Notes: generated from the letters alone by a model not told the origin. DNA of 64,000 nucleotides from Kofleriaceae bacterium (GCA_964203225.1 CAXNMK010000002.1:737664-801663); one strand, 5' to 3'. Positions 48,736-51,941 are shown, numbered from the stretch's first letter. Program-made: numbers and translations.

Positions 48736-49143
48736 ATGTCGCATTTCACCAAGTGCGCGCTGAAGATGACCAACCTCGCCGCCATCAAGAAGGCGCTCGA
48801 GGACATGCAGCTCTCGTACACCGAGGCCGAGCAAGGCCAGTCGGCGACCGTGCGTGGTTATCGCGGTGACAAGCTCCAGGCCGCGATCTCCGTCGACATG
48901 GGGCGCTACGACGTCGGCGTCGTTGACAACCAGGACGGGACCTACGACATCACCGCCGACTGGTGGGGCGTGGAGACGACCAAGGGCGTCTCCGAGGATG
49001 AGTTCAAGCACCGGCTGAGCCAGCGGTACCAGTACCACAACGTCAAGCAGGCCTGCGAAGAGAAGGGTTACGCCGTCGAAGAGGAGCTCAACGAGGAGGA
49101 CGGCTCGATCAGGCTCGTCGTGCGGAAGTGGGTGAGCGAGTGA
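48736..49143 (+). CDS. DUF1257-like small protein
   Basis: MSHFTKCALKMTNL... N-terminus and ~135-aa size recalled as typical of DUF1257. Paired with the following DUF2997-like ORF. Confidence 0.45.
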   Translation: MSHFTKCALKMTNLAAIKKALEDMQLSYTEAEQGQSATVRGYRGDKLQAAISVDMGRYDVGVVDNQDGTYDITADWWGVETTKGVSEDEFKHRLSQRYQYHNVKQACEEKGYAVEEELNEEDGSIRLVVRKWVSE

Positions 49144-49358
49144 GGAAGCAGGACATCGAGATCGTGATCAACGCCAAGGGCGAGGTCACCTACGAGGTCA
49201 AGGGCGTCAAGGGCGGGAGCTGCCTCGCCGAGACCGAGTTCCTGCTCGCCGCGCTGGGCGGGGACGGCTCCGTCCTCGAGCAGCAGAAGACCGGCGAGTT
49301 CTATGAACAATCAGAAGGTTACGTTTCGACCTGGGCCGGGGAAGCCAAGGACGAGTAA
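49128..49358 (+). CDS. DUF2997-like small protein
   Basis: QDIEIVINAKGEVTYEVKGVKGGSCLAETEFLLAALG resembles DUF2997, which is usually found next to DUF1257. Confidence 0.4.
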   Translation: MGERVRKQDIEIVINAKGEVTYEVKGVKGGSCLAETEFLLAALGGDGSVLEQQKTGEFYEQSEGYVSTWAGEAKDE

Positions 49359-49367
49359 CCCCGTAGG

Positions 49368-50027
49368 ATGACTGCCGTGTCGACCGATCAAGAGCAGACC
49401 GACCTCCTCCCGGGGGCCGAAGGCGCCTCCACCGAACCTGCGGCGGAAGGGCTGACGGACGAGCTTGCTCGAAAGTACGACCCGGAGCGCCTGCTCAAGA
49501 TGGTCTCGCGGCGTGCCGGCAAGGGCACGACGCTCGACCACGACATCCGCGCCAAGTACGAGAAGCGGTTCGGCGTGGACCTCGGGCACGTCCGGATCTA
49601 CACGGGCGAGTTCGCCGAGGAGTTCAACCGCCAGCGCAGCGCGTACGCGGTGACGATCGGCTCGACGGGCATGATCCTCATGGGCGGGTCGCCCAACAAG
49701 TCGATGGGCACGAACGCCGGCCAGGCGCTGCTCGCCCACGAGCTGACGCACGTCGCCCAGGCCAAGCGCGGCCTGCACCGCGCCGCCCACGAGGGCGCGA
49801 TGCCCCTGGCGACCGAGAGCCACGAGGCCGAGGCCGAGGCCGTCGAGGCCGACGTCGCCCGTGGTGGCGACGGCGCGGCAAGCGCTGAGCCCGGCGGCGC
49901 CGCGAGCAAACTCGCCAAGGATGCCAAGGACGCGCTGCACGAACAGATCAAGCAGCGGGTCCTCGACATGGCCGCCGATGCCGCGCGCGCGTTCTACTGG
50001 CGCAACGGCGTCGATCGCCGCCCCTGA
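49368..50027 (+). CDS. DUF4157-like HExxH protein (domain that typically heads eCIS cargo/toxin proteins)
   Basis: LDHDIRAKYEKRFGVDLGHVRIYTG...AYAVTIGSTGMIL...AHELTHVAQ matches the DUF4157 pattern with its HExxH. Confidence 0.55.
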   Translation: MTAVSTDQEQTDLLPGAEGASTEPAAEGLTDELARKYDPERLLKMVSRRAGKGTTLDHDIRAKYEKRFGVDLGHVRIYTGEFAEEFNRQRSAYAVTIGSTGMILMGGSPNKSMGTNAGQALLAHELTHVAQAKRGLHRAAHEGAMPLATESHEAEAEAVEADVARGGDGAASAEPGGAASKLAKDAKDALHEQIKQRVLDMAADAARAFYWRNGVDRRP

Positions 50028-50176
50028 GAGGTGGACGCAACCTCGTCCGGGGGGCCGACGCGGCTTGCCGCGTGGGCGAGGGGCGAGCCCACGTGGACTC
50101 GAACGGGCCCCACGGGGGCGCGCATCCGGCCACCGAGCTTTGAGCCCGCGGTGATTCCTGCGGTATCCTGTCCCTG

Positions 50177-50857
50177 ATGAGTTCTCCTGAGGCCGACGCT
50201 GGTGTCGTCCAGTCCCGCGTTCAGCTCGAGAGGCTGGTCGCCGATGACGAACTGGCCGGTCGCACGATCGCCGGGTTCGCGGCGCCCTCGGTGCTGCTCC
50301 GGGGGCTCGACCTCGACGGGGTGACGCTGGATCGCCTCGACCTGCGCGGCGCCGACGGCGACGAGACCCGCCTCGAGCGCGCGGAGCTCAAGCTGAGCGA
50401 TCTCCGCACCTCGCAGTGGAAGGGCGCGCTGTGGAACCGCGTCAAGGCCAAGGACTGCGACATGACCGAGCTCGACTTCAGCGGCGCGCAGCTGCTCCGG
50501 TGCGAGTTCGGGCCGGTGCGGATGGCGCGCGTGCGCTTCCACCGCGCGCGGATCCAGGGCACGACGTTCAAGGAGTCGGAGCTGTACTCGGCCGACTTCG
50601 CCGGCGCCGTGCTGCTCAAGGTCGTGTTCGAGGGCTACGAGCACGCCACCGTGTCGCTGTCGCGCACGGACTGGACGGGTGCATCGCTGTTCGACGTCGA
50701 CTTCAAGCGCGCGAACATGTACGGCGCGAACCTGCGCGGTGCGGTGTTCGTCCGCTGCGACCTGCGCGGGGTCAGCCTGTGCAGTGCTGATCTCACCGGC
50801 GCGCGCCTCGTCGGCTGCGACACCACCGGCGCCGACCTCGACGGAGCCACGTTCTAG
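50177..50857 (+). CDS. Pentapeptide-repeat protein (candidate eCIS payload/accessory)
   Basis: Tandem A(D/N)LxG-type pentapeptide repeats throughout (ANLRGAVFVRCDLRGVSLCSADLTGARLVGCDTTGADLDGATF). Confidence 0.7.
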   Translation: MSSPEADAGVVQSRVQLERLVADDELAGRTIAGFAAPSVLLRGLDLDGVTLDRLDLRGADGDETRLERAELKLSDLRTSQWKGALWNRVKAKDCDMTELDFSGAQLLRCEFGPVRMARVRFHRARIQGTTFKESELYSADFAGAVLLKVVFEGYEHATVSLSRTDWTGASLFDVDFKRANMYGANLRGAVFVRCDLRGVSLCSADLTGARLVGCDTTGADLDGATF

Positions 50858-50877
50858 GACCTCGTAGGAGCCCGCCC

Positions 50878-51498
50878 ATGCCGCCCCGCCCCGATCTCCG
50901 TGACATCGCTTCGAACGTCCGCGAGGCGTTCGCCGATGCTGACCGCGACACCCTGCTCGACGTCCTGACCTTCGTGGTCAAGGAGTATGTCGTCGAGGGG
51001 CCGCCGCCGATGATGATCCACCAGGCCGAGACGCTCTCGGACCTCAAGGGCATGTCGTTCGCCCAGCTGATCGCCGCGATGCAGACGCGCTTCGATCACG
51101 CCGAGCTGGCGATGTTTGTCGTCGATGGCGAGCAGGTCAGCGTGCGCGTCGGCGGTGTCGTCCAGCCGCTGCTGCCCAGCCGGCAGCCGATCGCCGAGCC
51201 CCCGCGGCAGGCGCCAGGGGTCCGCGTTGTCGAGACCACGCTGGCCCAGCAGCGCCCCGCTGCGCCCGCGCCGGTCGCCGCCGTCCCCGCGCCGCGGCCC
51301 GCTGCCCCGGCGTCGGCGCCGTCGGCACAGCCGCCCACGCGGGGCCTGTCCCTGCGCGGGCGGCCCACGGGGGAGGGTGGGGATGCACCGCCGCTTGCCG
51401 CGCCGCCGCCCGCGGCCGCCGCGCCGCCGCCGCCGGACCGCCCCGAGGGTGGGGGCGACGATGCCTCCGCGCGGTTCAGCCTGCTGGAGCTCGACTGA
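50878..51498 (+). CDS. Hypothetical protein with a Pro/Ala-rich C-terminal half
   Basis: ORF with a protein-like N-terminus. No domain recognised. Confidence 0.3.
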   Translation: MPPRPDLRDIASNVREAFADADRDTLLDVLTFVVKEYVVEGPPPMMIHQAETLSDLKGMSFAQLIAAMQTRFDHAELAMFVVDGEQVSVRVGGVVQPLLPSRQPIAEPPRQAPGVRVVETTLAQQRPAAPAPVAAVPAPRPAAPASAPSAQPPTRGLSLRGRPTGEGGDAPPLAAPPPAAAAPPPPDRPEGGGDDASARFSLLELD

Positions 51499-51941
51499 TG
51501 AGCTCTGTCGCACGGCGCTACTACGAGCGCGGCCGGCAATCGCTCGACACCGGCGATGTGGAGTCGGCGCAAGAGGCCCTGCGCGCCGCGCTCGACCTCG
51601 CGCCGCAGTTCGGCAACGCCCGGGTGGCGTACGCCGTGGCGCTCGCGCGCGCCGGGGACTGTCCACGCGCGGCCGCCGTCCTGCGTGCGGGCCTCGGGCG
51701 CGCGTCGTCGCCGATCTCCGCCGCCGCGATGTACGCCACGCTCGGCGACGTCCTCACCCTTGGCGGTGACTTTTTCGGGGCCGAGGATGCGTTCATGCAG
51801 GCGGCCGCCACGCCCGGCTTCGAGGTGCGAGCCGCCGCGGGCCTCGCGCGCACGTACGCCAAGCTCGGGCGCCACGCGGACATGGCCAGGCAGCTCAAGC
51901 TCGCCGCGGCCGCGTCGTTGCGAGGCCCCACGACGCCCTAG
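51498..51941 (+). CDS. TPR-repeat protein
   Basis: ARRYYERGRQSLDTGDVESAQEALRAALDLAPQFGNARVAYAVALARAGDCPRAAAVL shows tetratricopeptide-like repeats. ATGA coupled to the upstream ORF. Confidence 0.5.
   Translation: MSSVARRYYERGRQSLDTGDVESAQEALRAALDLAPQFGNARVAYAVALARAGDCPRAAAVLRAGLGRASSPISAAAMYATLGDVLTLGGDFFGAEDAFMQAAATPGFEVRAAAGLARTYAKLGRHADMARQLKLAAAASLRGPTTP

Follow-up and report, generated by a model that had tools for sequence, protein, structure and literature searches.

The window analysed here is a 64,000-nt stretch of a Kofleriaceae bacterium genome (GCA_964203225.1 CAXNMK010000002.1:737664-801663) that carries a complete contractile injection system (CIS) cluster. An AAA+ ATPase gene at the 3' end of this cluster is followed by a block of small genes (48736-51941), which the initial annotation took for candidate cargo or accessory genes of an extracellular CIS (eCIS). 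We found that this block is probably a fixed accessory set of one CIS lineage, built around the ATPase, rather than a payload cassette. The same gene order and the same orthologues recur across an order-level clade and beyond, which argues against a payload region, as does the observation that two of the orthologues exceed two structural proteins of the same locus, P2_I and CIS13-like, in conservation. The ATPase, DUF1257 and DUF2997 genes form an invariant three-gene unit, with frames that overlap or nearly abut in the window.

All genes of the block lie on the + strand. The ATPase (537 aa, 47102-48715; PF00004, E-value 5e-29) is followed by a DUF1257 protein of the Ycf35 family (135 aa, 48736-49143; PF06868, 5e-23; 81.7 bits for a cut-off of 22.2, over profile positions 1-103), a DUF2997 protein (72 aa, 49140-49358; PF11211, 1.1e-11; 44.8 bits for a cut-off of 24.1), a stand-alone DUF4157/eCIS_core protein (219 aa, 49368-50027; PF13699, 1.2e-19), a pentapeptide-repeat protein (226 aa, 50177-50857; PF00805, 4e-27), a 206-aa protein of an undescribed family (50878-51498), which has conserved orthologues and no family match, and a small TPR protein (147 aa, 51498-51941; TPR_16, 3.6e-8). 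The five genes that the initial annotation had named, for DUF1257, DUF2997, DUF4157, pentapeptide-repeat and TPR proteins, are real and sit where it had placed them, each scoring above the curated Pfam cut-off, but it had overlooked the 206-aa gene.

The genes are closely packed. The most likely start of DUF2997 is GTG 49140, which overlaps the stop codon of DUF1257 (GTGA) and is the start called in all related contigs, with 49128 as an alternative. The 206-aa and TPR genes overlap too, by stop and start codon (TGATG, 51496-51500). Intergenic gaps are 9-20 bp, except for 149 bp (50028-50176) between the DUF4157 and pentapeptide genes, a gap that measures only 17-47 bp in the relatives L005 and L004. 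A promoter and terminator scan found nothing convincing inside the block, this gap included. Given the tight gaps and the absence of an internal promoter or terminator, we read the block as the 3' end of one long operon. Codon-position GC agrees with the frames of all block genes except DUF2997, whose open reading frame (ORF) fell under the 180-nt cut-off of the scan, and TPR, which lay outside the GC filters; these two frames are taken from the Pfam matches and conserved orthologues instead.

Related loci were collected by scanning one genome per species with a DUF1257 alignment, using a 10-sequence subset because the alignment of 58 sequences was too diverse as a seed. The scan returned 264 carriers, and the best 80 of the 264 were all from Myxococcota. 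Homologue searches with the ATPase and DUF1257 proteins gave near-identical Kofleriaceae proteins alone among the matches listed (top 120), and the nearest relatives of the ATPase all come from metagenome bins of Kofleriaceae/Haliangiales (Myxococcota). Across loci L004-L078, from about 70 species-level Kofleriaceae/Haliangiales genomes, the order AAA, DUF1257, DUF2997, DUF4157, pentapeptide, 206-aa, TPR is constant. Throughout this clade, and in two long contigs reached by way of the ATPase, FHA genes precede the AAA gene, while PP2C, 231-aa and kinase genes lie on the opposite strand. The block order was also observed in four distant loci (L079, L081, L083 and L086; Polyangia, Nannocystaceae and other Myxococcota bins), despite DUF1257 identities of merely 44-51%; in L083, 2.3 kb of unrelated genes are inserted between DUF2997 and DUF4157.

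Conservation was compared as median identity to the window proteins over the 41 loci that have all seven genes, from AAA to TPR. The values were 86% for AAA, 85% for DUF1257, 76% for the pentapeptide protein, 74% for DUF2997 and 73% for TPR, with the 206-aa protein (59%) and DUF4157 (56%) the lowest of the seven. P2_I and CIS13-like, the structural proteins for which a comparison across loci was possible, have medians of 77-81%, which leaves AAA and DUF1257 (~85%) as the most conserved proteins compared in the locus. The sole strain-specific content seen in the block was in L004, where four inserted lipoprotein-like genes (14020-16706) separate the pentapeptide gene from the 206-aa orthologue and an 88-aa OmdA-domain gene lies between AAA and DUF1257 (11620-11886). 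In L070 (10600-19300), the FHA genes, AAA, DUF1257 and DUF2997 are present, and no match to DUF4157, pentapeptide, 206-aa or TPR was found after DUF2997.

These results bear on the payload interpretation, by which the genes after the ATPase would be payloads, with DUF4157 as the effector marker, the pentapeptide protein as a DNA-mimic or cytoskeleton toxin, and the remainder as accessory genes. The block lies at the 3' end of the CIS operon, the usual site of cargo (PMC8213781, PMC11297309), DUF4157 is an accepted cargo marker, and pentapeptide genes are mildly enriched in eCIS operons (odds ratio 2.9, classed as 'shell'), with a DUF4157-...-pentapeptide neighbourhood in the Myxococcus xanthus eCIS. 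We nevertheless consider this interpretation very improbable. The orthologues are fixed in order over the ~70 species and deeper, and genes for pentapeptide, 206-aa and TPR-like proteins are found beside the ATPase at loci with no CIS near. No toxin domain was found in the block proteins with the Pfam, NCBIfam and PADLOC libraries. The proposal that the pentapeptide protein is a DNA mimic or a cytoskeleton-directed effector failed by a wide margin against the NCBIfam models for such proteins: it scored 44.8 against a cut-off of 240 for Qnr, 53.9 against 360 for MfpA, 41.4 against 354 for PipB2 and 35.3 against 274 for PipB, and was likewise far below the cut-off of the HetL model.

The association of DUF1257 and DUF2997 with an AAA+ ATPase, which had been described as conserved, proved far broader than stated. 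AAA adjoins DUF1257 in 80 of 80 genome loci with sufficient flank. A tblastn search places DUF2997 next to DUF1257 in 84 of 87 loci, and Pfam detects DUF2997 in at least one of the remaining three. The N-terminal MSHF of DUF1257 is invariant in an alignment of 61 sequences; in the 58-sequence alignment, this holds for S2 and H3, with M1 and F4 almost invariant. DUF2997 contains one Cys that is invariant and the conserved motif E(Y/F)Y(E/Q). Triad-type genes were found in Myxococcota, Spirochaetota, cyanobacteria, Firmicutes plasmids and phages.

We distinguished several arrangements of the triad. Arrangement A is the CIS-linked order of the window. Arrangement C (L092, L095-L100 and one contig from the Joint Genome Institute, JGI) is also CIS-linked and runs radical SAM, AAA, DUF1257, DUF2997, Pvc16_N, sheath, tubes; its sheath is 66% identical to the window sheath, and just upstream lie genes for a DUF4157 protein (206 aa), a pentapeptide protein and a 141-aa protein bearing the C-terminal tail described below. 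In arrangement B (L082, L085 and L087-L091, one of them a Bradymonadia bin), the triad has no CIS gene and no DUF4157 within 10 kb. This arrangement is fullest in L088 and L089, where PP2C is followed by TPR-like, 156-160-aa and pentapeptide genes on one strand, in reverse order of transcription, with FHA coiled-coil, AAA, DUF1257, DUF2997 and a low-complexity protein on the divergent side. The other arrangement B loci carry subsets of this module of FHA coiled-coil, pentapeptide, 206-aa-like and TPR-like genes, with PP2C in four of the seven loci. Genomes with the CIS-less module include GCA_041389985.1 and GCA_963169045.1. Arrangement D has the order SPFH, AAA, DUF1257, DUF2997, NHL-TPR, and the triad has such SPFH/NHL-TPR neighbours in L102-L122.

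Further settings were observed. In L127, L135, L142, L147 and L161, DUF1257 and DUF2997 directly follow a ~530-aa Hsp70-like ATPase, this AAA not being adjacent, and three loci of this kind have a WD40 or HEAT gene upstream. A Pseudanabaena plasmid (L173; NZ_CP112875.1, 129250-140668) has GrpE, Hsp70 and DUF1257, and, further along, DUF2997 and AAA, in one operon, while a Bacillus cereus plasmid has a 4Fe-4S gene and, after other genes, AAA and DUF2997. The triad proteins match phrog_8638 (AAA), phrog_20456 and phrog_23133. In Aeromonas phage HJ05 (L175), the AAA gene, the DUF1257 gene and a 67-aa gene stand in series, and both this phage and Mycobacterium phage Corndog (gp96, L176) encode full-length relatives of the ATPase with 33% identity; Corndog-type phages label this protein merely 'AAA-ATPase'. 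Plasmid pTRESU01 of Treponema succinifaciens (L177; NC_015386.1, 45000-90000) holds a CIS island, in which several VgrG/Pvc8 and base_V genes are accompanied by a gene for a polymorphic toxin. Its ATPase is 55% identical to that of the window and adjoins base_V, and about 20 kb away the order is base_V, DUF2997, a 124-aa gene, pentapeptide and a 136-aa tail-bearing protein. The ATPase, DUF2997, pentapeptide and 206-aa families thus recur in this spirochaete CIS island. Since the parts of the Treponema set are ~20 kb apart, the absence of CIS genes within 10 kb in arrangement B leaves room for a CIS elsewhere.

The main rival to the CIS accessory interpretation comes from these settings. By this account, the FHA, AAA, DUF1257, DUF2997, pentapeptide, 206-aa, TPR and PP2C genes would form an independent, phosphorylation-controlled remodelling or defence-like mobile module that merely lies beside the CIS. 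It would explain the seven arrangement B loci without CIS genes within 10 kb, the triad with SPFH/NHL-TPR genes, on plasmids and in phages, the DUF1257-DUF2997 pair after an Hsp70-like ATPase, and the higher conservation of AAA and DUF1257 relative to CIS baseplate proteins. We consider it unlikely all the same, given that members of the ATPase family lie within CIS clusters of at least two phyla, in three different arrangements, that the ATPase is the sole AAA protein of the window CIS cluster when an AAA protein is a core eCIS component, and that there is no gap or promoter between the module and the baseplate genes. PADLOC returned generic AAA and coiled-coil matches only (IetA and TRIP13; LmuB and JetC), and a reading as a defence system was rejected.

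In a published eCIS survey, DUF1257 accounted for a single one of 22,287 genes and showed no enrichment (Geller 2021, PMC8213781). In cyanobacteria, the pairing of DUF2997 with ycf35 is known, and the pair sits with the ferredoxin Fed7 or with Hsp70/GrpE; in red-algal plastids, ycf35 and ycf46 are among the genes whose presence follows habitat. The window resembles the cyanobacterial and plastid Ycf35 setting in having a DUF1257 protein of the Ycf35 family paired with DUF2997, and the ATPases of cyanobacterial plasmids are 44-45% identical to the window ATPase over the full length. Unlike the window pair, the cyanobacterial pair is found with Fed7 or Hsp70/GrpE and not with a CIS.

The ATPase itself is a classic AAA protein with Walker A/B motifs and arginine fingers (GVPGTGKS, ILWIDEIE and RKGRFD). 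A COG label from JGI suggests that it may be a Ycf46 orthologue. Orthologues are 85-91% identical across Kofleriaceae, phrog_8638 matches over the full length (4e-156), and the best solved relatives are Cdc48/p97 D2 domains. Only the N-terminal half of a structural model was usable, the mean predicted local distance difference test score (pLDDT) being 58.7 and the AAA domain poor, from a shallow alignment. In this model, residues 10-222 form, with moderate confidence, an alpha/beta domain and helical lid without a P-loop. Foldseek aligned the whole chain to the D1-D2 tandem AAA proteins p97, Rix7 and MSMEG_0858 with template modelling (TM) scores of 0.3-0.4. The model is consistent with a degenerate D1-like half followed by an active D2, an organisation that has been described for Pvc15.

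In several respects the ATPase resembles Afp15/Pvc15/Alg15, the ATPases of known eCIS: it is a classic-clade AAA protein with Walker A/B and the second region of homology, it is the sole AAA protein of its cluster, and, to judge from the model, an inactive D1-like half may precede its active domain. It differs in that it has 537 aa and no separate N domain, whereas Pvc15 has an N-D1-D2 layout with D2 at residues ~499-659, and the afp15-class MXAN_4510 of M. xanthus has 657 aa. Unlike the Afp15 class, it is always trailed by DUF1257 and DUF2997, and its family is also found outside CIS loci and in phages.

The C-terminus of the ATPase shares a tail type with the 206-aa protein. In the window, the ATPase ends in SKIEL (48701-48715), and a tail of the form R[KR][LI]E[LVM]-COOH closes the ATPase of almost every Myxococcota locus, as well as those of arrangements C and D and of Treponema, but not those of the cyanobacterial and Bacillus plasmids. 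The 206-aa protein had no match in Pfam, NCBIfam, PADLOC or PHROG. Members of its family consist of a folded N-terminal domain (~100 aa), a linker that is rich in Pro and Ala and varies in length, and, at the C-terminus, an invariant tail, which reads RFSLLELD-COOH (51472-51495 in the window) in 46 of 48 orthologues and ends in LEFD or LEVD in the two others. The tail is RFKKLEFD, RFRKLEFD or FRGLEFD in arrangement B, RSRLLEVD in arrangement C, and GRFSNLELL in the 136-aa member on pTRESU01. The ATPase and 206-aa tails co-occur in Myxococcota arrangements A, B and C and on pTRESU01. These acidic-hydrophobic tails may be docking peptides for the adjacent TPR protein. A clathrin-box reading of the LLELD tail was set aside: tails of this type are also borne by the cytoplasmic ATPase and occur at CIS-less loci, so that a peptide for docking inside the cell is favoured. 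The TPR protein has a weak match to the model of the type III secretion chaperone SctY, and the CIS-less loci have a 138-aa TPR-like gene in the equivalent position, with Pfam support in L089 only.

Pentapeptide, 206-aa and TPR-like genes travel with the ATPase family across Myxococcota, CIS-linked or not. Orthologues of the pentapeptide protein were seen with the triad in all of A, B and C, as well as on pTRESU01. A possible functional parallel is offered by the pentapeptide proteins TagA/B of the Burkholderia type VI secretion system T6SS-5, which are needed for Hcp secretion and sheath assembly and are considered non-effectors. TagA/B-5 and TagB-5, like the window protein, are pentapeptide proteins inside a contractile-system cluster and conserved with it. 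Unlike them, the window protein has no DUF2169 by Pfam, pentapeptide families alone matching, and there is no sequence sign of orthology, so that any resemblance would be functional only.

DUF4157 behaves differently from the other block genes. It alone accompanies both CIS-linked arrangements (A and C) and is missing from the CIS-less loci. Flanks were long enough to judge in 49 loci: CIS genes and DUF4157 are both present in 39 and both absent in five, and in the other five DUF4157 is present with the CIS genes probably just past the flank. In the window, it lies three genes after the AAA gene of the complete CIS cluster. The call of a stand-alone HExxH protein held firmly: the match to PF13699, named 'eCIS core domain' in current Pfam, is 70.7 bits for a cut-off of 22, and AHELTHV is present in the translation. 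In 26 aligned orthologues, LLAHELTHVxQ and the downstream E153 are invariant, and this invariance of the HExxH and Glu suggests selection for metal binding or catalysis. The N-terminal ~30-45 residues are acidic, variable in length and unconserved in the same alignment, and a conserved ARKYDPERLL stretch lies between them and the domain. After the domain come ~85 residues, a variable linker and then a conserved C-terminal helix. No C-terminal effector domain was found above cut-off in Pfam, nor any in NCBIfam, PADLOC or PHROG; residues 111-210 gave only a sub-threshold match to DUF6782.

DUF4157 has been published as the strongest marker of eCIS toxins and cargo (Geller 2021, PMC8213781; Danov 2024, PMC11297309), in agreement with its use as a cargo marker in the initial annotation. 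Cgo1 and Cgo2, the loaded cargo of AlgoCIS, have an N-terminus-plus-DUF4157 layout, yet the domain is dispensable for their loading, and an in-trans chaperone role has been proposed (incl. PMC11297309). The window protein shares with Cgo1/Cgo2 and DUF4157-containing eCIS-associated toxins a PF13699 domain with HExxH, a place in a CIS operon, and an acidic, poorly conserved N-terminus. It differs from them in being a 219-aa protein without a C-terminal effector domain, and in being a fixed orthologue in all related genomes rather than a variable gene. On sequence features, it is a reasonable candidate for a cargo or a cargo helper. We hold it quite possible, although somewhat short of an even chance, that the protein is not injected and acts in trans as a metallopeptidase or chaperone for cargo encoded elsewhere, such as the spike extensions at 30588-34246. 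The invariant HExxH and Glu, the lack of an effector domain in the ~85 residues with one conserved helix after the domain, and the published in-trans proposal together with the dispensability of the domain in Cgo1/2 loading would all fit such a role. A variable, disordered-looking N-terminus followed by DUF4157 is, however, the architecture of loaded AlgoCIS cargo, and the lowest median identity of the seven block genes is as expected for a protein that meets a target.

The genes on either side of the block may point to control by phosphorylation. Directly upstream of the ATPase lies a gene (44393-47080, +; FHA, 5e-15) whose FHA-domain product has a linker rich in Pro and Gly and a long coiled coil. 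Between the baseplate genes and this coiled-coil gene lie another three FHA-domain genes (40950-41801, ~41801-43330 and 43287-43802, +; 1e-16 to 1e-18), which are syntenic in relatives. Convergent with the operon, a PP2C Ser/Thr phosphatase (52042-52854, -; 6e-14; median identity 84%) is followed by a 231-aa protein with no Pfam match (52943-53638, -; syntenic in relatives) and a Ser/Thr kinase (53658-55319, -; Pkinase, 3e-47) with a Pro/Gln/Gly-rich repeat region after the kinase domain; the kinase start is uncertain inside the ORF 53658-56084. The 231-aa protein weakly matches (31%, 1e-5) the product of a gene that lies downstream of the L087 triad. Long Pro/Gly/Gln/Met-rich repeat tracts (PPGM..., GGFQPP...) were also observed in both the kinase (53658-54500) and the FHA linker (44700-45600). 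This FHA/PP2C/kinase layout is syntenic in all Kofleriaceae relatives examined, and in the CIS-less loci the FHA coiled-coil gene precedes AAA and PP2C is present too.

The threonine phosphorylation pathway of type VI secretion systems (T6SS) is a precedent for control by kinase, phosphatase and FHA proteins. As with PpkA/TagE, PppA/TagG and Fha1/TagH, the window kinase, PP2C and FHA genes adjoin a contractile system and an AAA+ ATPase. Unlike the T6SS pathway, the window has four FHA genes, one of them fused to a long coiled coil, and no T6SS membrane-complex genes were noted in it; moreover, FHA and PP2C, and not the kinase, recur in the CIS-less module. No paper joining FHA, AAA, Myxococcota and contractile injection was found in the literature searched.

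Taken together, the accessory set could work as follows. The ATPase would form a Cdc48-like ring with a degenerate D1-like half, if the model is right, and DUF1257 and DUF2997 would be its small obligate cofactors, as Ufd1-Npl4 are for Cdc48. By analogy, it might fill the role of Afp15/Pvc15 in assembly and cargo handling or that of ClpV in T6SS sheath recycling. The FHA proteins, PP2C and kinase would gate the ATPase through threonine phosphorylation, in the manner of PpkA/PppA/Fha1, and the pentapeptide, 206-aa and TPR proteins would act as adaptors or regulators. A plausible guess is that the TPR protein docks the ...RKLEL tail of AAA and the ...RFSLLELD tail of the 206-aa protein. DUF4157 would be the one CIS-specific, fast-evolving member of the set, a client that is loaded as a small cargo or else a helper that acts in trans, as a metallopeptidase or chaperone, on cargo from genes elsewhere.

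Several points weigh against this account. Any tie of the block proteins to particles is predicted here from the genes, and in Kofleriaceae the module is linked to the CIS by adjacency and co-orientation only. Triads beside SPFH/NHL-TPR or Hsp70-like genes, on plasmids and in phages suggest a generic function that need not concern a CIS, and the CIS-less loci could fit a module working independently. A conserved cargo is conceivable too, and the docking of the tails by the TPR protein is pure inference. As for the ATPase, the structural model is poor and its D1-like half was read from weak Foldseek alignments. Pore-loop 1 (48014-48025, residues 305-308) is G-L-V-G, without the aromatic-hydrophobic-Gly motif, which is unusual among substrate-threading AAA+ proteins. 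The LVG residues are invariant in 37 aligned close orthologues and may speak against a strong unfoldase.

A wider interpretation, which we offer tentatively and with rather less than even confidence, is that the AAA+ (Ycf46-like), DUF1257 (Ycf35) and DUF2997 proteins constitute an unrecognised, widely mobile protein-remodelling machine of three parts. One CIS lineage would have it in place of Afp15 and wired to threonine phosphorylation, with the pentapeptide, RFSxLEL-tail and TPR proteins as dedicated adaptors. In other settings, DUF1257 and DUF2997 would have an Hsp70-like ATPase as an alternative partner.

The remainder of the window was read from Pfam scans of ORFs with codon-bias support. 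The GC content of the window is ~70%. As the initial annotation had assumed, the locus is a CIS: a complete cluster of cap, sheath, tube, spike and baseplate genes lies upstream of the block on the + strand. It comprises a Pvc16_N cap (starting at 16991), a first sheath gene (18037), a tube (19465), a second sheath gene (21208), a gp19 tube (22972), gpD (28737), two base_V spike genes (29681 and 30588), gp25 (34771), Baseplate_J (35348), P2_I with PASTA (38389) and a weakly matching CIS13-like protein (39291), with the ATPase gene at 47102-48715 as its single AAA gene. Two stretches, 23449-28264 and 30588-34246, have a GC content of 76-79% and contain large ORFs without a Pfam match and with overlapping alternative ORFs; the second base_V spike gene has a long extension in the latter stretch. 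The CIS tape measure, or effector parts carried on its spike, could be encoded in these GC-rich ORFs. Upstream of the CIS are a type II secretion or pilus-like cluster (36-9006; T2SSE, T2SSF, pseudopilins, T2SSK, PilM-like and T2SSM) and an aspartyl-tRNA synthetase gene (13780-15615).

For the CIS field, a rule that treats genes downstream of the ATPase and next to DUF4157 as cargo can mislabel conserved, machine-associated genes as toxins. In this locus, DUF4157 may still be cargo, and the other members of the supposed cargo block are probably accessory genes that travel with the ATPase. We would describe the block as a conserved set of accessory and regulatory genes belonging to a CIS lineage, of which a single member resembles cargo. 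The kinase, phosphatase and FHA wiring suggests, by analogy with T6SS, that this myxobacterial CIS may be regulated post-translationally. Two orphan families, rarely mentioned in the literature searched, gain a concrete partner here: this is the first genomic context to suggest a role for DUF1257/Ycf35 and DUF2997, pointing to both as putative cofactors of ATP-driven protein remodellers. Such a role would bear on cyanobacteria and plastid biology, and on CIS engineering, where loading is the bottleneck.

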